Below are positions 1 to 11,658 of a stretch of DNA of 64,000 bases, one piece after another. Location: the NCBI RefSeq assembly GCF_013122565.1, contig NZ_CP053258.1; one strand, 5' to 3'. The stretch comes from Escherichia coli (GTDB lineage Bacteria; Pseudomonadota; Gammaproteobacteria; Enterobacterales; Enterobacteriaceae). Made by a program: the position numbers and the translations under genes. The notes beneath the pieces were generated by a model. It was not told where the DNA came from. It saw only the letters and a list, made by a program, of their open reading frames with translations, and ran no database searches. Positions within the stretch are counted from its first letter, which is position 1. Each line of letters opens with the position of its first letter.

Positions 1-1
1 C

Positions 2-202
2 ATCATTGCCAGCGGTGAAAATTCAACGGTAGTGAGCACGGGCGTGGTCGACTCAATTATTCTCGGGCCAGGAGGAAGCGCCGCACTGGCATATCATGAC
101 GGCGAAAGAGTTCGTTTCGCCGTCGCCATTGAAGGTGAAAACAATATTCGAGCCGGAGTCCGCTATCGTCTTAATGAACAGCATCAGTTTGTTGAGTGCT
201 GA
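2..202 (+). CDS. ydhT: 3' terminal fragment (66 codons) of a gene truncated by the window start; probably ydhT by gene order
   Basis: Frame +2 is open from position 2 to TGA at 200-202 (translation IIASGENSTVVSTGVV...RYRLNEQHQFVEC, no internal stops); convergent with ydhS as in E. coli gene order; identity inferred from position, not from recognised sequence. Confidence 0.5.
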   Translation: MIASGENSTVVSTGVVDSIILGPGGSAALAYHDGERVRFAVAIEGENNIRAGVRYRLNEQHQFVEC

Positions 203-213
203 TAGCTTTACCT

Positions 214-1818
214 TTAATCAAACGAAAGACGCCGACGAGCACGGGATGCAGGTTTTACGACCGCCCGAGCCATCGCCTCACCAATTTCTGCACATGCCGT
301 AAGTCCCTGAACGAAAGGCTGGTCGTGCATTAACCAGGGCAACGCGCCGAACGCTACGCGCCCACGAATATCTTCGGGTTGCTGTAACGTATAATCTTCA
401 CCAACATCAGGGATTTCATCCCCTGTTTTCTGTAATTGTTCGCGTAGTCCAGGGAAAGGAATATCTTTCACTTTAAGCGGACGCTGCCCGCGGGCATCAA
501 TAAAAACGTCAAACGAGTAGCTGTTGTCTTCCGTTTTCAGGACGGTGCGCGACTCGTTAATTTCCATTTTGTAGTCTTCACCGAGAGCGAGAATATGAAT
601 GATTCCCGCTTCACGTAAGGCCAGCAGCCGACGAATAGACTCTGAAGGGATTGCGGCATAATTATCTATGAAAACCCGGGCAAGGCCTTTACTGAACCGT
701 TTATGGTCGTGTTCATTCAGATGTGGAACAATTTCCTGTACTGCTTCATGCAGGCGCAGAATGACATAACGCCAGGGAACAGTATGTTTTTCTCGTTTAT
801 TGCGTTCGACTTCCTGGAGATTTTTTTCTGCCCAGTCAAATGGGTCGCGTTGTTTGCGCTCGGCAAACCAGGCTTGAGCAAAGGAATCGACATTCAGGCT
901 CTCTAAGGCTATGCGTTGACTCCAGTCTGGATCAGCAAACTTGATTTCCTCTACTATCAATCTAAATACCCGATCCAAAAGGCCCTCTTCGCCTTTTTGA
1001 ATTTCAGCATTTAATGCCTGATCGGTGACGATGTGTAAGGGCTCGTAGGGAATAGGGCAATAGAAATCGGCTTCGGGTAAAATACCCGTGCGCGACATCA
1101 ACGTGATATTTAGCTTTTCACTTGCGTTATCGCGGTGAAAAACGACGTGTTGTTTATCATCTTCAATGAACGAACCATGCTGAATAGCCACTGCCATTGC
1201 CGCATCCAGTCCGCTCAAGGATGTTCCCATAATACCCACGTTACACGCATCGACCTTTGCTTCCATCAGGCCTGACCACGGGCTGGGAAAATACGTTCGG
1301 GTTGCTTCTTCTTCATCAGGCCAGACGTGACCCGTGGCAATCACCGCTAAATCAAACGTCTCGCTGGGTAAATCCTGATTTGTAGCGAGCATGACGCCAG
1401 CATTTGTAATTTGAAGATCGGTAACCTGGCATGATTCATAAACAGCCACTGCAAATTTTTGCTTTCGTGCCTGGTCTACTAATCTTAAAAATTGATCGCG
1501 GAAATATTCGCCCAGCAGAATTCGCGGTAAAAACTGACGATCGTGCAAGGTTTCTTTTTTAACGCCATAACGCTGGAGATGGCTGGCTTCTTGCTTTTGT
1601 AGCCATTCGAGATACGTACAATAAATCGGCGGTATTTCAATACTGGCAATATTTGCCAGCATCATTTTTGAGTTTTCCTCATCACTGTATGGCATCCCGA
1701 CACCGGCCTCGTCAGCCTGCTCGAAGATAGAAATAGAAAGTGGAGTTTGTTGCTGTAGAAGCGAGAATAAGGTGTAGATCCCCGTAGGCCCGGCACCCAC
1801 AATAGCAATTTTTTTCAT
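214..1818 (-). CDS. ydhS: FAD/NAD(P)-binding protein YdhS
   Basis: ORF track 534 aa; N-terminal MKKIAIVGAGPTG dinucleotide-binding motif; length and sequence match my memory of E. coli YdhS. Confidence 0.9.
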   Translation of the reverse strand: MKKIAIVGAGPTGIYTLFSLLQQQTPLSISIFEQADEAGVGMPYSDEENSKMMLANIASIEIPPIYCTYLEWLQKQEASHLQRYGVKKETLHDRQFLPRILLGEYFRDQFLRLVDQARKQKFAVAVYESCQVTDLQITNAGVMLATNQDLPSETFDLAVIATGHVWPDEEEATRTYFPSPWSGLMEAKVDACNVGIMGTSLSGLDAAMAVAIQHGSFIEDDKQHVVFHRDNASEKLNITLMSRTGILPEADFYCPIPYEPLHIVTDQALNAEIQKGEEGLLDRVFRLIVEEIKFADPDWSQRIALESLNVDSFAQAWFAERKQRDPFDWAEKNLQEVERNKREKHTVPWRYVILRLHEAVQEIVPHLNEHDHKRFSKGLARVFIDNYAAIPSESIRRLLALREAGIIHILALGEDYKMEINESRTVLKTEDNSYSFDVFIDARGQRPLKVKDIPFPGLREQLQKTGDEIPDVGEDYTLQQPEDIRGRVAFGALPWLMHDQPFVQGLTACAEIGEAMARAVVKPASRARRRLSFD

Positions 1819-1943
1819 TGTTACTTACCTGTACGCATTCTTTCGAATTTAGTGTTATCAGATAAGTTTGGTTGAGATTTTTAGAATTTGAGAAATTTCA
1901 GACAGGGATGAAAAGGGCGCTAACCGCCCTTGATTAAATTCTG

Positions 1944-2249
1944 TCAGGCGAGTTTTGCCTGATTGATTTGACTAAGTGGCTCATTGACATCGAAAACTTT
2001 GGCGACAACTTCCTCAACGCCGAGATTTTTCAGTCGGGCAGTATGTTTTTCCAGATAGGCAAGGGCGCTTTTTTCATCAGTGAAAAGGTAGATCCCACCG
2101 GCTTCGTGGTTCTTTTCACTTTCTGTCCATACCTTCCACAGAAAACCAGGTTCCTGATTAATCGACTCAGCAAGTGGTTTAAGCTGCTCAGCCATTGCGT
2201 CGCCAAATGGGCCATTAAAAGCAAAATGAAGTTGTAACAAAGTTGCCAT
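1944..2249 (-). CDS. ydhR: putative monooxygenase YdhR
   Basis: ORF track 101 aa; matches E. coli YdhR in length and position next to tRNA-Val pair. Confidence 0.85.
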
Positions 2250-2356
2250 AGCGATTCTCCTTCTGATAACGCATACGAAGACAGTGTAAATCTTTTAACG
2301 TATTGGATACAGAGAAGAAACAGAGGGAAAAAGGAGAAGACCAGATTAAGAAAATC

Positions 2357-2433
2357 TGGTGCGTCCGAGTGGACTCGAACCACCGACCCCCACCATGTCA
2401 AGGTGGTGCTCTAACCAACTGAGCTACGGACGC
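2357..2433 (-). tRNA. valW: tRNA-Val (anticodon GAC)
   Basis: Reverse complement reads GCGTCCGTAGCTCAGTTGGTTAGAGCACCACCTTGACATGGTGGGGGTCGGTGGTTCGAGTCCACTCGGACGCACCA; 77 nt with encoded CCA; anticodon loop CTTGACAT; valV/valW assignment by position only. Confidence 0.9.
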
Positions 2434-2437
2434 AGGA

Positions 2438-2514
2438 TGGTGCGTTCAATTGGACTCGAACCAACGACCCCCACCATGTCAAGGTGGTGCTCTAACCAAC
2501 TGAGCTATGAACGC
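2438..2514 (-). tRNA. valV: tRNA-Val (anticodon GAC)
   Basis: Second copy 4 nt from the first; reverse complement GCGTTCATAGCTCAGTTGGTTAGAGCACCACCTTGACATGG...AATTGAACGCACCA; 77 nt with CCA. Confidence 0.9.
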
Positions 2515-2821
2515 AACGTTGTAGGTGACAACGGGGACGAATATTAGCGGCAGAGTGGGAAGGTGGCAAGAGGCAAAACGTAATTTTCTGCGCTATTTCG
2601 ACCGTTTGCAGAGCTTTTAAGCAAATTGGCTATATTTTGTTGATTTGCAAGGGCGATTTTTATTCAGGATCGCATTTACATCCTATACAACCCAATAATT
2701 CGTGTATCAGAGTTTAAACAGAGTTGTTTGCCACCATCTCAAATCTGTCGTGGATAAATCCTCCGTAGCCTTTACACTTAGGTAGCAATAAAGGCACACA
2801 GATGCAGCAAAGGAATAAATC

Positions 2822-4078
2822 ATGGGATCTGATGCGAAAAACTTGATGAGCGACGGGAATGTGCAAATTGTTAAGACCGGCGAGGTCATTGGCGCGACGC
2901 AACTTACTGAAGGCGAGTTGATTGTTGAAGCTGGCGGAAGAGCCGAAAATACCGTGGTCACGGGGGATGGCTGGTTGAAAGTGGCAACCGGTGGGATCGC
3001 CAAATGCACACAGTACGGTAACAATGGCACGCTATCGGTCAGCGACGGTGCCATTGCCACAGATATTGTTCAGTCCGAGGGAGGCGCAATTAGTCTCTCT
3101 ACGCTCGCTACGGTTAATGGCCGCCATCCCGAAGGTGAATTCAGCGTTGATAAAGGTTATGCCTGCGGTTTGTTGCTGGAAAATGGCGGTAACCTGCGTG
3201 TACTGGAAGGCCATCGCGCGGAAAAAATTATTCTCGATCAAGAGGGCGGCCTGTTGGTCAATGGGACAACCTCAGCGGTCGTGGTAGATGAAGGTGGTGA
3301 ATTGTTGGTGTATCCAGGTGGGGAAGCCAGCAATTGTGAGATTAATCAGGGCGGCGTTTTTATGCTGGCGGGGAAAGCCAATGATACGTTGCTTGCTGGT
3401 GGCACCATGAATAATCTCGGTGGTGAAGACTCTGACACTATTGTTGAGAATGGAGCCATCTATCGTCTGGGGACGGATGGCCTTCAGCTCTACAGTTCCG
3501 GTAAGACGCAAAACCTGTCCGTTAATGTGGGTGGTCGGGCTGAAGTGCATGCCGGTACGCTGGAAAATGCGGTAATACAAGGTGGAACAGTGATCCTGTT
3601 GTCACCCACCAGCGCGGACGAAAATTTTGTCGTAGAGGAAGATCGCGCACCGGTTGAACTGACCGGGAGTGTTGCATTACTGGACGGCGCTTCAATGATT
3701 ATTGGCTATGGCGCAGATCTGCAACAATCAACGATTACTGTACAGCAGGGCGGTGTATTGATTCTCGACGGCAGTACGGTAAAAGGTGACAGTGTCACTT
3801 TCAGTATTGGTAACATCAATCTGAATGGCGGAAAACTGTGGCTGATCACTGGTGCGGCAACGCATGTGCAGCTGAAAGTGAAACGCCTGCGCGGAGAGGG
3901 AGCGATTTTCCTGCAAACCAGTGCGAAAGAAATTTCACCTGACTTCATCAATGTGAAAGGGGAAGTTACCGGTGATATACACGTTGAGATAACAGATGCC
4001 AGTCGGCAAACTCTGTGTAACGCACTGAAACTACAGCCAGACGAAGACGGGATTGGCGCAACGCTCCAGCCTGCGTAA
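2822..4078 (+). CDS. ydhQ: autotransporter-adhesin-related protein YdhQ (Gly-rich beta-helix-like repeats, no translocator barrel)
   Basis: ORF track 418 aa; Gly/Thr/Val-rich repetitive sequence typical of AidA-type passenger domains; length matches E. coli YdhQ. Confidence 0.85.
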   Translation: MGSDAKNLMSDGNVQIVKTGEVIGATQLTEGELIVEAGGRAENTVVTGDGWLKVATGGIAKCTQYGNNGTLSVSDGAIATDIVQSEGGAISLSTLATVNGRHPEGEFSVDKGYACGLLLENGGNLRVLEGHRAEKIILDQEGGLLVNGTTSAVVVDEGGELLVYPGGEASNCEINQGGVFMLAGKANDTLLAGGTMNNLGGEDSDTIVENGAIYRLGTDGLQLYSSGKTQNLSVNVGGRAEVHAGTLENAVIQGGTVILLSPTSADENFVVEEDRAPVELTGSVALLDGASMIIGYGADLQQSTITVQQGGVLILDGSTVKGDSVTFSIGNINLNGGKLWLITGAATHVQLKVKRLRGEGAIFLQTSAKEISPDFINVKGEVTGDIHVEITDASRQTLCNALKLQPDEDGIGATLQPA

Positions 4079-4118
4079 AAATACAGGCGCAACCCGTGAA
4101 GGTTGCGCCTTGTCTTTA

Positions 4119-5513
<1,395 letters not shown>

Positions 5514-5706
5514 TTATATGAGAGACTAAAAAGCCGCCTGAATGGGCAGCAAAAAGAAGAAGCAGGGGAAATTCAGTCTATTGTAGCGAGGATTTATTAA
5601 TTCTCCAGTGAAAAAATAGCCATTCTTACCCCTTCACTGGTAAGGGCGTTTGCCACCTGCTATTGTGCTGAACAGAATGTCTTAACTGATTTCAGGAGTT
5701 GTAAGT

Positions 5707-6348
5707 ATGTTTACGGGGATTGTACAGGGCACCGCAAAACTGGTGTCGATTGACGAGAAACCAAATTTTCGTACGCATGTGGTGGAGTTACCCGACCACA
5801 TGCTGGACGGCCTGGAAACCGGTGCGTCCGTGGCGCATAACGGTTGCTGCCTGACCGTGACGGAAATTAACGGCAACCATGTCAGTTTTGACCTGATGAA
5901 AGAAACGTTACGCATTACCAATCTTGGCGATTTAAAAGTGGGGGATTGGGTAAACGTTGAGCGTGCGGCGAAATTCAGTGATGAAATTGGCGGACACTTA
6001 ATGTCAGGTCATATTATGACCACCGCTGAAGTGGCGAAAATATTAACCTCGGAAAATAATCGCCAGATCTGGTTTAAAGTCCAGAATAGTCAGTTGATGA
6101 AATATATCCTGTACAAAGGATTTATTGGCATCGACGGTATTAGCCTGACCGTCGGCGAAGTCACGCCAACGCGTTTTTGCGTCCATTTAATTCCGGAAAC
6201 ACTGGAACGCACGACTCTTGGGAAGAAAAAACTCGGCGCACGCGTCAACATTGAAATCGATCCACAAACTCAGGCAGTGGTAGATACGGTAGAACGTGTG
6301 CTGGCGGCACGAGAATATGCCATGAATCAACCAGGTACAGAAGCCTGA
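5707..6348 (+). CDS. ribC: riboflavin synthase
   Basis: ORF track 213 aa; N-terminal [15 protein letters not shown] and internal duplicated lumazine-binding halves typical of riboflavin synthase. Confidence 0.92.
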
Positions 6349-6387
6349 TCTGAAATCGCCCCCGGAGAGGGGGCGATAGAATAGCCT

Positions 6388-7536
6388 TTAGCGAGCGACT
6401 CGAAGGCCGTTTTCAACACCGCGTGAGAACACCACCTGCCAGAGCTGAATATCACGGGCGCGGAAAGCACCTGCACAGGCATTCAGATAATAGGTAAACA
6501 TTCGTTTAAAGCGTTCACTGTAGTTATCCGCAATTTCTGGCCATGCGGCGAGGAATCGTTCATACCACGCCATCAACGTAGTATCGTAATCAGCACCGAA
6601 GTTATGCCAGTCTTCCATCACAAAGTGGGGTTCGCTGGATTGAGCAATCTGGCGTACAGAGGGCAGGCAACCGTTCGGAAAAATATATTTGTTAATCCAG
6701 GGATCAACATTCAGATCGGTTTTTTTCGAACCGATAGTATGGAGCAGGAATATGCCTTCCGGTTTCAAATTACGATCCACCACCGCAAAATAGGTATCGT
6801 AATTTTTCGGTCCGACGTGCTCGAACATCCCCACAGAAACAATACGATCAAACTGGTCGTTCAGGTCACGATAATCTTGCAGCAAAATGGTGACATCCAG
6901 GCCTTCACAGCGTTCCTGAGCCATTTTTTGCTGTTCGGCAGAAATGGTGACGCCAACCACGCTTACGTCATAGTTAGATGCCATGTAGTGCGCCAGTCCG
7001 CCCCAGCCGCAGCCAATATCCAGTACGCGCATCCCTGGTTTTAACTGCAATTTTTCACAAATCATTTTGAGCTTCGCCTGCTGGGCAGATTCCAGATTAT
7101 CGGCATCTTTCCAGTAAGCGCAGGAATATTGCATGAAGGGATCAAGCATGCGGCTGAACAAGTCATTACCCAAATCGTAATGCTCTTTGCCGACTATCCA
7201 GGCACGTTTTTTACTCTGCAGATTGAAGAGACGAGCGCCGGCAATACGTAGCGTGTCTTTGAAATGATGGGGGAGTTGGTTCTCGAGACCTGCGCGTAAG
7301 ACTTTGCTAAAAAACATATCCAGTCGGTCACATTCCCACCAGCCATCCATATAACTTTCGCCTAACCCCAATGAGCCTTCTTGCAGAACGCGTTTAAAAA
7401 AATCGGGGTTTTTCACACGAATATCCGCCGGGGCAGAACCGTTAATGGCTATACCGGCACGGCTAAGTAATTCGTTGGCGATACGGTACCAGTTGTCATC
7501 CGGTACACTGACTTCTTCTATACACGATGAACTCAT
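6388..7536 (-). CDS. cfa: cyclopropane-fatty-acyl-phospholipid synthase
   Basis: ORF track 382 aa; SAM-methyltransferase motif VLDIGCGWGG; matches E. coli Cfa. Confidence 0.92.
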   Translation of the reverse strand: MSSSCIEEVSVPDDNWYRIANELLSRAGIAINGSAPADIRVKNPDFFKRVLQEGSLGLGESYMDGWWECDRLDMFFSKVLRAGLENQLPHHFKDTLRIAGARLFNLQSKKRAWIVGKEHYDLGNDLFSRMLDPFMQYSCAYWKDADNLESAQQAKLKMICEKLQLKPGMRVLDIGCGWGGLAHYMASNYDVSVVGVTISAEQQKMAQERCEGLDVTILLQDYRDLNDQFDRIVSVGMFEHVGPKNYDTYFAVVDRNLKPEGIFLLHTIGSKKTDLNVDPWINKYIFPNGCLPSVRQIAQSSEPHFVMEDWHNFGADYDTTLMAWYERFLAAWPEIADNYSERFKRMFTYYLNACAGAFRARDIQLWQVVFSRGVENGLRVAR

Positions 7537-7826
7537 AGTTTCTCCATCACTGGTCGGTGATCAGAACCTTAAAACAGCGTAGACGCTTTTTGGGCTTTGT
7601 GAGAAATCTCGCAGAAAAAACCGCGAGTCTATAATCCGACGTAGAACAGAGGGAAAGGAGGAACCCTTGCCGAAATGACCATCCATAGTGAGTCGGGAAC
7701 GATCCTGTCCCCGTAAAAACATAATATTTATCGTAGCTTTAACAACTCGAAATTAGTATAGGCCGCTAATTTCAATCATACAACAAAATTTTGTTAGCAG
7801 CCTAAGTATAAGTATATCGATATAGA

Positions 7827-9038
7827 TCAGTGTGATTCGCTATGAGCGACTTCGGCATTGCCATGATTCTGGCAGCCAACTTCTTCACAACGTTGCATCA
7901 TGTAACCCAGCGCGACCAGCACTACTGTTGATAACATCACGCTGGTGGTGGTGAGCAATGGCGTGCTGATACTGATCAGCCAGGAAACTACCAGACTTGC
8001 GAGGAAGCACAGACCCAGTTGTAGAGTGTTCTGCAACGCTGCGGCGCGACCAGTTGCGTGTGGGAAGGGACGCAGCGCCTGGGCGACAACAATAGGGTAG
8101 ATCGCGCCATTAGCAATCGCCATCACACAGAATGGGATCAGGATTTCGACCAGCGACACATGGCTAATGAAGCCCGCAGCCCAGGTCGCAATGACGCTGA
8201 CAGCAAACAGCACCAGCAACCACGGTAATAACTGCTTGCCTTGCCATTTCTGCAGCGCGGCGCGACAGCCATAACCACCAATCAGAAACGCGATAGTTTG
8301 CGGGACATAACTTAAACCAATAACTGCCGGGCTGTAGCCCATTTCACTAAGGATGAACGGTGAACCGGTCAGCCATGCAAAAAAACTGGCTGAACAGGCC
8401 GCGTATATCAGCACGTTGCCGCGATAGGTTTTAGAACGTAGCAGGTCGGTAAAGGTCAGACCATCCTGACTATTGTTACGGGCCTTCGTCGTGGGTTTGA
8501 GCCAGAAAATAGGCAGAATCAGCACCACGGTAATGGCAAACAGGGTGGCGAAAATCGCCTGCCAGGAAAAATGGACCAGCAGCCAGCTTCCTAACAGAGG
8601 AGCCAGGGCCGGAGACAGACCCACCAGCGGCATGATGGTCGCAAAAATTCGGTTAACTTTCTGTGAAGGATAATAATCCGTCACTAACGCTTGCCAGATA
8701 ACCGCCGCGGCGCAGACCCCCACAGCCTGTACAAAACGCAATACCAGCAGCGTGGCGGCGTTTTCAACCCACAGCATCCCCAGACTACCTAACGCAAAAA
8801 TTGTCAGGCCGATTAATAATACCGGTTTACGACCATAACGGTCGGAGAGCGGCCCCCACAGAAGCTGGGCTGCGGCAAAACCGGCAAGGAACAGACTAAG
8901 GCTGGCACTGACAGCAGACGCAGGCGTTTGCAGGTCGGCCTGTATGGCGGCGAAAGCAGGCAGATACATATCGGTTGCCAGAAAACCGAGTACGCTCAAA
9001 CCCGCCAGCCAGACTAAAAATCTTTTCCCAGGTTGCAT
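7827..9038 (-). CDS. punC: MFS transporter PunC (formerly YdhC), purine nucleoside uptake
   Basis: ORF track 403 aa; 12-TMS MFS-like sequence; divergent from LysR regulator as in E. coli. Confidence 0.85.
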
Positions 9039-9150
9039 GTATATTCTCTAAATCTCTCAATTAAACACCGCCGCAAAGTGTAGGGAGTGAAATTAGTGTT
9101 GTGAAACGGTAATATTTGATGACTGGTTTCAAAAATTTTGCAGGCAGACT

Positions 9151-10083
9151 ATGTGGTCAGAATATTCTCTCGAAGTTGTTGATGCGGTAGCGCGTAATGG
9201 TAGTTTTAGCGCTGCAGCCCAGGAGTTGCATCGCGTTCCTTCTGCGGTCAGCTATACCGTGCGTCAGCTGGAAGAGTGGCTGGCGGTGCCGCTCTTTGAA
9301 CGACGGCACCGTGATGTGGAGCTGACCGCTGCTGGAGCGTGGTTTCTCAAAGAAGGGCGCTCTGTTGTCAAAAAAATGCAGATCACCCGCCAGCAATGTC
9401 AGCAGATAGCGAACGGCTGGCGCGGTCAGTTAGCTATCGCAGTGGATAATATTGTCAGGCCAGAACGTACACGGCAGATGATCGTTGATTTTTATCGCCA
9501 TTTTGATGATGTCGAACTTCTTGTCTTTCAGGAAGTGTTCAACGGTGTCTGGGATGCGCTTTCCGACGGGCGCGTGGAACTGGCGATTGGCGCAACACGC
9601 GCGATTCCGGTAGGCGGTCGTTATGCCTTCCGGGATATGGGGATGCTAAGCTGGAGTTGCGTTGTTGCCAGTCACCACCCGCTGGCGTTGATGGATGGTC
9701 CGTTCAGCGATGATACGTTGCGCAACTGGCCGTCGTTGGTGCGCGAAGACACCTCGCGAACGCTACCTAAACGTATTACCTGGTTGCTGGATAACCAAAA
9801 AAGAGTTGTCGTGCCTGACTGGGAATCATCGGCAACCTGTATCTCGGCAGGATTATGCATAGGGATGGTGCCAACACATTTCGCCAAACCGTGGCTTAAT
9901 GAAGGGAAGTGGGTAGCATTAGAACTGGAAAACCCCTTTCCGGATTCGGCATGTTGTCTGACATGGCAGCAAAATGATATGTCGCCTGCGTTAACCTGGT
10001 TGCTTGAGTATCTCGGCGATAGTGAGACGCTGAATAAGGAGTGGCTGCGGGAGCCGGAAGAGACTCCCGCAACGGGTGATTAA
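9151..10083 (+). CDS. punR: LysR-family transcriptional regulator PunR (formerly YdhB)
   Basis: ORF track 310 aa; N-terminal LysR HTH region; divergent from punC. Confidence 0.85.
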
Positions 10084-11105
10084 CGACGATAGTCGCGGAA
10101 CGGGCCGTCAGCCACGGAACGGCGTTCAATCAAGCGCGGATGCACTTCAATGGACTGCGGTTCTTCACGTTTGTTGACGATACGATCCAACAGCATGTTG
10201 AACGCTGTTTCACCCAGCGAATCTTTTGGCTGATGGATCGTGGTCAGCGACGGCGTAAAATAGCGTGCGTTGCGCACGTTATCATAACCGATCAGCGAAA
10301 CATCCTGCGGGACGCGCAGCCCCATTTCATCAGCAGCACAAAGTGCGCCCATTGCCATGATATCGCCACCACAGAAGACGGCAGTAGGGCGATGCGGCTG
10401 CGACAGGATTTGCTGCATGGCGCGATAACCGGATTCAGGTTCAAAGTCACCCTGCACAATCCAGCTTTCCGGCACCTTGATCATCGCTTCTTCCATCGCC
10501 TTCATAAAACCGGCAAGGCGGCCTGCGCCGGTGTTGCGCTCCAGCGGGCCGGGGATGACGCCGATTTCGCGGTGACCGCGTTCAATCAGATAACGCCCGG
10601 CCATGTAGCCGCCTTCGAACGCGTTATCAATGACCGCATCGGTGAAGTCAGCTTTTGCTTCACCCCAGTCCATGACCACCATTGGGATATGGCGATACTC
10701 TTCCAGCATCGCCAGCAACGGCTCTGGGTACTCAGAACACATCACCAGCAGACCATCGACGCGTTTTTGCGCCATCATCGACAGATAAGCCCGCTGTTTC
10801 TCAAGATTGTTCCACGCATTGCCCAGAATCAGGGTGTAACCTTTCTGGAAGCAATTTTTTTCAACTGCTTCAATGATCTCGGCAAAATAGGCCGCTTCGC
10901 TGCTGGTCGCCAGCAAACCGATAGACTTGGTGTGGTTAACCTTCAGGCTACGCGCCACCGCGCTAGGGGAGTAGTGTAATTCTTTAATCGCTGCCCACAC
11001 GGCGTTGCGCGTTTCTTCAGCGACGAAACGTGTTTTGTTGATCACGTGTGACACAGTTGTAGTGGAAACGTTTGCTCGTTTCGCTACATCTTTTATTGTT
11101 GCCAT
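10080..11105 (-). CDS. purR: purine repressor PurR (LacI family)
   Basis: ORF track 341 aa; N-terminal [36 protein letters not shown] matches PurR HTH. Confidence 0.95.
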
Positions 11106-11149
11106 TCCATTTCACTCCAGACCCTAACTTCAGCTCCTGCAAAATCGCA

Positions 11150-11165
11150 AGGTAAACGTTTGCCT
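11150..11165 (-). promoter_or_regulatory. PurR box-like operator in the purR leader (autoregulation)
   Basis: Plus strand AGGTAAACGTTTGCCT, i.e. minus strand AGGCAAACGTTTACCT, matching the PurR consensus core GCAAACGTTTnC; about 45-60 nt upstream of purR start codon. Confidence 0.6.
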
Positions 11166-11403
11166 TTACACACCTTACGCACAACAAAAGTGTTGCGGTA
11201 CGCCGGAAAAACGACACGGAGCGTCAGGAAGGGGTCAATGGCCAGTACGCAAATAGTGTAAGCGTGGAATTTTGGCCGATCTTGACGAAAAGGGGAAGTG
11301 GTAAAAACACTTATCATTATAAATGACGGGAGATTTTTTCATCACAGTGTGTAAAAATGCGTAATATCACTTTTTGTGTGGTAATAAAAAAGGAGAAAAC
11401 TTG

Positions 11404-11493
11404 ATGAGCACCGACCTTAAATTTTCACTGGTAACAACGATTATCGTCCTCGGTTTGATCGTAGCCGTGGGTTTGACTGCCGCGCTGCACTGA
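11404..11493 (+). CDS. ynhF: small membrane protein YnhF (29 aa)
   Basis: ATG at 11404 preceded by AGGAG about 8 nt upstream; translation MSTDLKFSLVTTIIVLGLIVAVGLTAALH, single hydrophobic helix; matches known E. coli small protein in purR-ydhP intergenic region. Confidence 0.75.
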   Translation: MSTDLKFSLVTTIIVLGLIVAVGLTAALH

Positions 11494-11658
11494 TTTCCAC
11501 TCGAGGGAGCGCGTTCTCCCTCGCATCTCCTTCCTGTTTGTTAGCAAAATGGCAAAAGTGTTTTCTCTTTTTGTTATTTTCATTTTTTTGTGATTGCTGT
11601 CATGCTTTCGCCACTTTAATGAATATCGCGTAATGACGCGAAGAGGTGGAGATAAGGC

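Follow-up and report, generated by a model that had tools for sequence, protein, structure and literature searches.

We analysed a stretch of 64,000 nucleotides of Escherichia coli DNA (contig NZ_CP053258.1; hereafter the window) and found that the gene ydhQ, an open reading frame (ORF) at positions 2822 to 4078 on the plus strand, codes for a 418-aa passenger beta-helix of the AidA/Ag43 type that has neither a signal peptide nor a translocator barrel. We consider it probable (roughly 0.7) that YdhQ is a fragment of an autotransporter passenger that was inserted at the base of the genus, was kept by selection and stays in the cytoplasm as a beta-solenoid. In the course of events that we propose, YdhQ is a piece of a type Va autotransporter passenger, which comprises AIDA-type beta-helix rungs and, of the pertactin-like domain, the first two thirds only. 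A segment of about 1.47 kb (5′ region, ORF and terminator hairpin) entered the ~155-bp spacer between mdtK and the tRNA-Val(GAC) promoter no later than in the common ancestor of the Escherichia lineages sampled, and purifying selection on the protein has maintained the ORF ever since. Lacking a signal peptide, a hydrophobic segment and a barrel, the product would fold where it is synthesized, in the cytoplasm, into a soluble beta-solenoid, and its role there may be that of a rigid scaffold that binds an intracellular partner, and not that of a surface adhesin exporting itself.

YdhQ is a passenger beta-helix without export modules

YdhQ, which we take to be b1664 of strain K-12 and which RefSeq annotates at this locus as 'ydhQ: AIDA repeat-containing protein', exceeded the curated cutoffs both of the AIDA repeat (Pfam PF16168; E=2e-28, three stretches, 98.7 bits against a cutoff of 27) and of its own equivalog model (NCBIfam PRK09945/NF007409; 935.5 bits against 830, aligned over residues 1-418 of 418). 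The AlphaFold2 (AF2) model is all-beta, with a pLDDT of 90.2, a pTM of 0.87 and low-confidence stretches at residues 1-7 and 263-275. When this model was run through Foldseek, the top eight matches in the Protein Data Bank (PDB) were the passengers of Ag43, Ag43b and TibA (E 5e-11 to 5e-9, probability 1.00), and a PDB search with the sequence returned the same entries, the best by both routes being 7ko9, 7koh, 4kh3, 7kob and 4q1q. ORF, profile matches, AF2 model and Foldseek together describe a stand-alone right-handed beta-helix of 43 kDa, acidic (pI 4.4; 52 D+E against 25 K+R) and rich in Gly (15.3%) and Thr (7.9%). A preliminary description of this DNA, made from the letters alone, had proposed such a Gly/Thr-rich, AidA-type beta-helix and had suggested structure prediction as the check; the repeat profile, the model and its structural neighbors all bear the proposal out.

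The same description had remarked on the missing barrel and signal peptide, and both absences held. The Pfam scan returned no match to the translocator barrel PF03797 at E<=1 in YdhQ. At the other end of the protein, an in-frame TAA two codons 5′ of the ATG excludes an N-terminal extension, and the N-terminus (MGSDAKNLMSDGNVQ...) reaches a maximal Kyte-Doolittle mean of only 0.76 (15-residue windows, first 75 aa), so there is no hydrophobic core resembling that of a signal peptide; SignalP 6.0 was likewise negative (PMC13101318). Neither blastx nor a three-frame reading of positions 2515-2900 revealed a frameshifted signal peptide, an upstream passenger or an autotransporter remnant, the sole blastx match being a spurious ORF over the tRNA. 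Between the end of the ydhQ ORF and the stop codon of mdtK lie 40 bp, which leaves no space for the remnant of a barrel. Between helix and stop codon lies a truncated pertactin-like domain of the autochaperone region (codons 330-403, window positions 3809-4030, plus strand), recognized by Pfam, by an alignment with relatives (A1) and by the domain maps of those relatives; it covers only positions 2-78 of the 121 in the Pertactin profile PF03212. Measured against a type Va autotransporter, then, YdhQ has the beta-helical passenger and lacks the signal peptide, the complete autochaperone region and the barrel, and it is unable to export itself.

Ag43 (Flu), AIDA-I and TibA share with YdhQ the strand-loop-strand repeat family (PF16168/TIGR04415) and the right-handed, three-faced beta-helix of the passenger. 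Unlike YdhQ, which has none of these modules, they possess an (extended) signal peptide, a complete autochaperone/pertactin region, a linker and a 12-stranded barrel, and are displayed on the surface. The scores of YdhQ against NF033177 and NF033176 (94 and 55 bits) are accordingly far below their cutoff of 1200. When 1.8 billion representative proteins were scanned, 554 relatives of YdhQ turned up which, besides its own fragments, are mostly large multi-repeat proteins, many of them autotransporters and some of them other repeat proteins. Five full-length AIDA-repeat autotransporters are 28-38% identical to it. In four of these (P0130, P0157, P0158 and P0094, 707-978 aa), residues ~165-399 of YdhQ are colinear with the C-terminus of the passenger and the beginning of the pertactin domain; the PF03797 barrel, absent from YdhQ, follows 100-200 aa past the aligned end. 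The fifth (P0026, 1534 aa) matches mainly through its AIDA repeats, the longest stretch spanning residues 30-312 of YdhQ; it has an ESPR signal peptide, and no PF03797 match is listed for it. The full-length relatives run on for 280-400 aa past the end of YdhQ, this tail containing the remainder of the pertactin/AC_1 domain. In alignment A1 the homology reaches nearly to the ydhQ stop codon and ceases about 20 residues before a conserved GxYxYxL segment of the relatives, which is absent from YdhQ.

No autotransporter closer than 38% identity was found in the scan, and at such a distance no donor can be singled out. A 422-aa protein (P0064) that we considered as a second barrel-less homolog was discarded: its tail diverges from that of a near-identical full-length autotransporter, which marks it as a frameshifted fragment. 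The gene for P0026, the closest full-length relative (ESPR, 11 AIDA stretches, AC_1), belongs to a block at positions 3848-15933 of its locus (L124) together with a second autotransporter, a NEL-domain protein (IpaH/SspH-type E3 ligase) and a protein with faint, below-threshold Pfam matches to leucine-rich repeats, a neighborhood that looks virulence-type.

Within K-12, other adhesin-like autotransporters are YcgV, YpjA and YfaL, with ycgH, ydeK, yaiT and yejO as pseudogene remnants. The former retain their barrels and the latter are disrupted, whereas ydhQ is a clean, conserved and selected ORF without export modules; what they have in common with ydhQ is that all are chromosomal genes of the adhesin family that are cryptic or poorly expressed. 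YdhQ has been grouped with the K-12 adhesin-like autotransporters in the literature (PMC13101318; PMC9110714).

The place of ydhQ between mdtK and the tRNA-Val genes

To place ydhQ in a wider context, its locus was compared with at least 120 loci carrying a tandem tRNA-Val(GAC) pair, one genome per species, onto which the proteins of the window were mapped. In the 98 listed loci with both mdtK and the tRNAs, mdtK always lies upstream of the pair on the same strand, and in 86 of them its stop codon is separated from the first tRNA by 140-376 bp, most often by about 155 bp. These short gaps are spread over Citrobacter, Enterobacter, Klebsiella, Serratia, Erwinia, Pantoea, Proteus and even Ferrimonas. 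The gap measures 1598-1607 bp in E. albertii, E. whittamii and the cryptic-clade genome that serves as a species representative of 'E. coli', and the entire excess consists of ydhQ (81-87% amino-acid identity). Moreover, a 419-aa ortholog with 71% identity has the same mdtK-adjacent layout in a partial contig (L122) from an Escherichia-like lineage, whose MdtK is 95% identical. Among the listed loci, ydhQ was found in this spacer only in Escherichia, the Escherichia-like lineage included. An alignment of the spacers indicates that about 135 bp upstream of the tRNA are ancestral and common to Citrobacter, Enterobacter and Klebsiella, whereas the 170 bp before ydhQ, ydhQ itself and the terminator hairpin are specific to Escherichia, in which the Citrobacter-type terminator hairpin of mdtK has been replaced. 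These comparisons support a genus-level insertion of ~1.47 kb (window ~2651-4115), and hence a lineage-specific acquisition instead of an ancestral enterobacterial gene. The preliminary description had posed the question of whether ydhQ is ancestral at this position in all relatives: it appears so within Escherichia, and not across the family.

Within the species the gene is single-copy and present in 5424 of the 5426 complete E. coli genomes, with a median of one place per genome, and at blastn sensitivity no paralogous copy of the DNA was found elsewhere. E. coli AR_0013 (NZ_CP032204.1, H30/H42) matches the first 52-61% of the query only, so ydhQ may be interrupted or rearranged there. One assembly of Nissle 1917 (H29, NZ_CP007799.1) has the region in three pieces with four tRNA-Val annotations; another assembly of the same strain (H36) is normal, and the fragmentation may be an assembly artefact.

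The window as a whole is a chromosome segment of Escherichia/Shigella with the gene order ydhS, ydhR, two tRNA-Val genes, ydhQ, mdtK, ribC and cfa. ARAGORN and Rfam (RF00005) place the two tRNA-Val(GAC) genes on the minus strand as a tandem operon, the first at 2438-2514 (70.1 bits) and the second at 2357-2433 (69.6 bits), which by the K-12 gene order we take to be valV and valW, respectively; they are separated by 4 nt and differ at 6 positions when compared. Upstream of them, the ancestral region of the operon (2515-2650, minus strand, the boundary at ~2650 being approximate) was delimited by a promoter scan and by a spacer alignment of nine genomes. In Citrobacter, Enterobacter and Klebsiella its homologous counterpart is the mdtK-valVW spacer, and within it we located a sigma-70-like promoter (TTGCCA-17-TAATAT, 2569-2541, minus strand). 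The Escherichia-specific stretch that follows (2651-2821, plus strand, from the spacer comparisons) presumably holds the promoter and 5′UTR of ydhQ. Its last 100 nt before the ATG are 83-88% identical among the named Escherichia species, and it has GGA motifs, one of them within the Shine-Dalgarno region (AAAGGAA). The ydhQ leader is a predicted CsrA target (prediction cited in PMC5389547), and an FlhDC gSELEX site maps to the ydhQ-valV spacer (PMC9962212). Six bases past the ydhQ stop codon begins a GC-rich hairpin (4085-4110) that scores on both strands in a terminator scan, a putative bidirectional intrinsic terminator between the convergent ydhQ and mdtK; its stem, GGCGCAA...TTGCGCC, is kept across Escherichia and is unlike the mdtK terminator hairpin of Citrobacter and Enterobacter. 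The conserved flank, mdtK (4119-5492, minus strand), encodes a MATE efflux pump according to the ORF list, the annotation and the locus comparison.

The proximity to tRNA genes, common sites of integration, had led the preliminary description to suggest that ydhQ might be a decayed remnant of an adhesin island once integrated there. The tandem pair with its 4-nt spacer was correctly recognized, and the statement that ydhQ lies directly next to it can be made more precise: the gene is divergent from the tRNA operon, 307 bp away, and on its promoter (5′) side. Integrases that target tRNA genes act at the 3′ end, so the position of ydhQ argues against an integration of this kind. As the description had also noted, repeats of the tRNA end and integrases are missing: apart from the tRNAs themselves, the 64-kb window contains no copy of the tRNA-Val 3′ end (14-45-mers with up to 3 mismatches, both strands), and no integrase-like ORF was evident by eye in the ORF listing of positions 1-9000, where no integrase-specific search was run. 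Nor does the composition stand out, as the GC content of ydhQ (0.50-0.52, about 51%) is like that of its flanks (mdtK 0.51-0.56). What the insert shares with tRNA-associated genomic islands is that it is lineage-specific and stands beside tRNA genes; it differs from them by its 5′ position, the lack of a direct repeat, of a GC deviation and of an integrase visible by eye, its size of only 1.5 kb and its fixation across the genus. None of the hallmarks of such islands (3′-end position with a repeat, mobility gene, odd composition, variable presence) was found for this core gene. We conclude that ydhQ was not acquired by integration into the neighboring tRNA genes and that its adjacency to them is incidental.

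On the other side of the tRNA pair, directly downstream of it and convergent with it, a conserved full-length autotransporter is present in Enterobacter sp. Bisph1, Kosakonia cowanii and Siccibacter colletis (L002 1897-8427, plus; L046 7615-9951, minus; L021 36-2828, plus), in the place held by ydhR-ydhS in Escherichia. The three have a common C-terminus (...TLGVRAGYT..GGYGGQ..LK.GF); the complete copy (L002) has 2176 aa, and the ORFs in L046 and L021 have 778 and 930 aa as listed, without a recognizable N-terminus. We considered these proteins as donors of ydhQ and rejected them, given an identity of 27-33% that runs through generic repeats and their location on the opposite side of the tRNAs.

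The mdtK-tRNA-Val spacer carries cargo unrelated to ydhQ in other genera (L016 1928-3599, L042 2022-3691, L033 3186-4311, L055 2604-6153, L027 1171-5607 and L048 4174-13184). To judge from the translations, this is an SDR-like ORF of 247 aa with a TetR-like ORF of 184-210 aa in Pseudescherichia, a secreted protein of 215 aa in Kluyvera, a porin-like gene with a transporter in Citrobacter sp. R56, and a LysR-like regulator with an aminotransferase-like gene and a permease in Pluralibacter gergoviae; in Citrobacter sp. Cu233 it is a 9-kb block. The spacer looks like a recurrent point of insertion or rearrangement.

Purifying selection on the ydhQ frame

The ydhQ frame is intact, at 418-419 codons, in E. 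coli, E. albertii, E. whittamii, the cryptic-clade genome and the more distant lineage. Among these five lineages, the ratio of non-synonymous to synonymous substitutions (dN/dS), calculated by the Nei-Gojobori method (NG86), was 0.07-0.11 in all ten pairs at dS values of 0.23-2.8, of which those above 1 are saturated; the unsaturated pair (dS 0.23) gave 0.09. For comparison, the same ratio was 0.01-0.03 in the neighbors mdtK, ribC and cfa, and 0.05-0.08 in ydhR. We also simulated the neutral evolution of the frame, which stayed open in 4% of the runs at 0.1 substitutions per site and in none of 5000 at 0.35 or more; the five lineages have no stop codon in ydhQ against a neutral expectation of 8-15. 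Across ten orthologs, 240 of the 419 alignment columns are invariant, the most conserved block comprising residues 81-160, and the C-terminal tail KLQPD.D.IGA is also kept. The signs of a pseudogene, namely a dN/dS near 1 and frameshifts or stops among the orthologs, are thus missing. The gene is clearly under purifying selection at the protein level, and is therefore a retained (exapted) gene, not a pseudogene; the suggestion that it had decayed does not survive this result.

Alternative readings, neighboring features and significance

The published data fit a cytoplasmic YdhQ. The protein has been quantified by label-free proteomics (PMC6561319), fusions without a leader fluoresce in the cytoplasm and have no surface activity, and the apparent surface display of reporters by YdhQ requires the addition of a foreign signal peptide (PMC13101318). 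The only leads to a partner are hits of high-throughput studies, to the RNA-protein interface, where YdhQ is among 17 new RNA-interface proteins (bioRxiv 10.1101/2023.07.03.547468), and to EF-Tu, with which it copurified (PMC2672614). It is a tentative idea, which we hold with more doubt than confidence, that the passenger was domesticated inside the cell for a new, non-adhesin role, possibly in complexes of RNA and protein or of translation factors, and has been selected for it since the origin of the genus.

Several points weigh against our preferred reading of YdhQ as a retained cytoplasmic passenger fragment. Its strong acidity argues against direct binding of RNA, and EF-Tu is a common contaminant of pull-downs. 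Fold, missing export modules, insertion, selection, expression and cytoplasmic leaderless fusions are matters of observation; the intracellular scaffold function is what we infer. On the side of the sequence data, the sample of loci left out Salmonella and a named E. fergusonii, the larger dS values are saturated as stated, and the non-synonymous rate of ydhQ is about five times that of mdtK, ribC and cfa. Finally, some positively selected sites have been reported in ydhQ, a pattern more typical of surface proteins, and the same article, as a secondary source, states that ydhQ is required for early adhesion (PMC9110714).

The last two points are also what favors the main rival to the cytoplasmic reading, namely that YdhQ is an extracellular or surface adhesin that is released non-classically (through lysis, in vesicles, by another secretion system or with the help of a paralogous autotransporter's barrel in trans) and promotes early adhesion through a self-associating beta-helix. 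Its closest structures are indeed self-associating adhesins, helices of the Ag43 type being known to dimerise head to tail, reporters are apparently displayed once a foreign signal peptide is supplied, and YDHQ appears within the COG3468 group in a list of vesicle proteomes (PMC10458587). This listing is, however, at the level of the COG only, the locus has no gene for an export partner, and the protein, whose fusions remain cytoplasmic unless a leader is added, has no signal peptide, hydrophobic segment or barrel and an incomplete autochaperone region. We therefore regard the adhesin explanation as unlikely.

Much less credible still, in our estimation, is the view that ydhQ no longer functions and is decaying, as what is left of an adhesin island that had used the tRNA-Val genes as its integration site. 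It would account for a domain architecture truncated at both ends, for the confinement of ydhQ to Escherichia among the listed loci, for its insertion beside tRNA genes and, in other genera, for the full-length autotransporters on the 3′ side of the same tRNA pair and the other cargo in the same spacer. Nevertheless, it is largely refuted by the selection data, that is, by a dN/dS of ~0.1 and a frame that stayed intact in five lineages at a dS of up to 2.8, which neutral evolution did not reproduce; the promoter-side position, the missing tRNA repeat, the flank-like GC, the core and single-copy status of the gene in E. coli and the low identity to the tRNA-adjacent autotransporters of other genera speak against it as well. 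That something else than the protein keeps the frame open, for example a function of the DNA or RNA as a spacer or insulator separating the mdtK terminator from the strong tRNA promoter, or as a regulatory transcript, is hardly tenable: the insert does lie between terminator and promoter, its 5′ leader is conserved and binding of CsrA and FlhDC is predicted or reported nearby, but non-synonymous change is ten times rarer than change at the nearly saturated synonymous sites, which denotes selection at the level of amino acids, a spacer of ~155 bp suffices in most Enterobacterales among the listed loci, and the protein has been detected by proteomics.

Some features of the neighborhood lie outside the question of ydhQ. 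Rfam gave a full-length match to RF02194, 'HPnc0260 bacterial antisense RNA', at window positions 2233-2395 on the plus strand (112 bits, well above the gathering score of 59; model positions 1-156 of 156). It runs antisense to the start of ydhR, to the spacer between ydhR and the tRNAs and, in the second tRNA-Val, to the 3′ half; a weaker partial match at 2437-2473 is antisense to the first tRNA. Among the listed loci, ydhR itself (1944-2249, minus strand) is lineage-restricted, its occurrence being limited to Escherichia and some Citrobacter (L066 and, apparently frameshifted, L098); Enterobacter, Lelliottia and Silvania have ydhS directly after the tRNA pair and no ydhR (L005, L018, L031, L045, L061 and others). 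The number of tandem tRNA-Val(GAC) copies varies by genus from 2 to 5 in the listed loci (L001-L120), many Pantoea, Erwinia and Serratia having 3, while an Aeromonas and one Pantoea agglomerans reach 5. The defence models of PADLOC gave no match.

The literature already covers the gene ydhQ, its annotation and its missing leader, and the finding as such is therefore known. Our own contribution is to have dated the insertion and placed it exactly, to have excluded a tRNA integration and to have shown evidence of purifying selection. Uncharacterised 'y-gene' of E. coli that it is, ydhQ is usually filed as an adhesin-like autotransporter or used as a dispensable site for chromosomal insertion. 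The lack of self-export, the insertion at the base of the genus and the purifying selection make its localisation and its intracellular partners worth studying, and not surface adhesion alone, and they counsel caution in treating the gene as a guaranteed neutral landing pad. It also offers a clean case of a truncated domain architecture beside tRNA genes that resembles the debris of an island and is not. Should the domestication of YdhQ prove true, it would be the first passenger of type V secretion re-used inside the cell.

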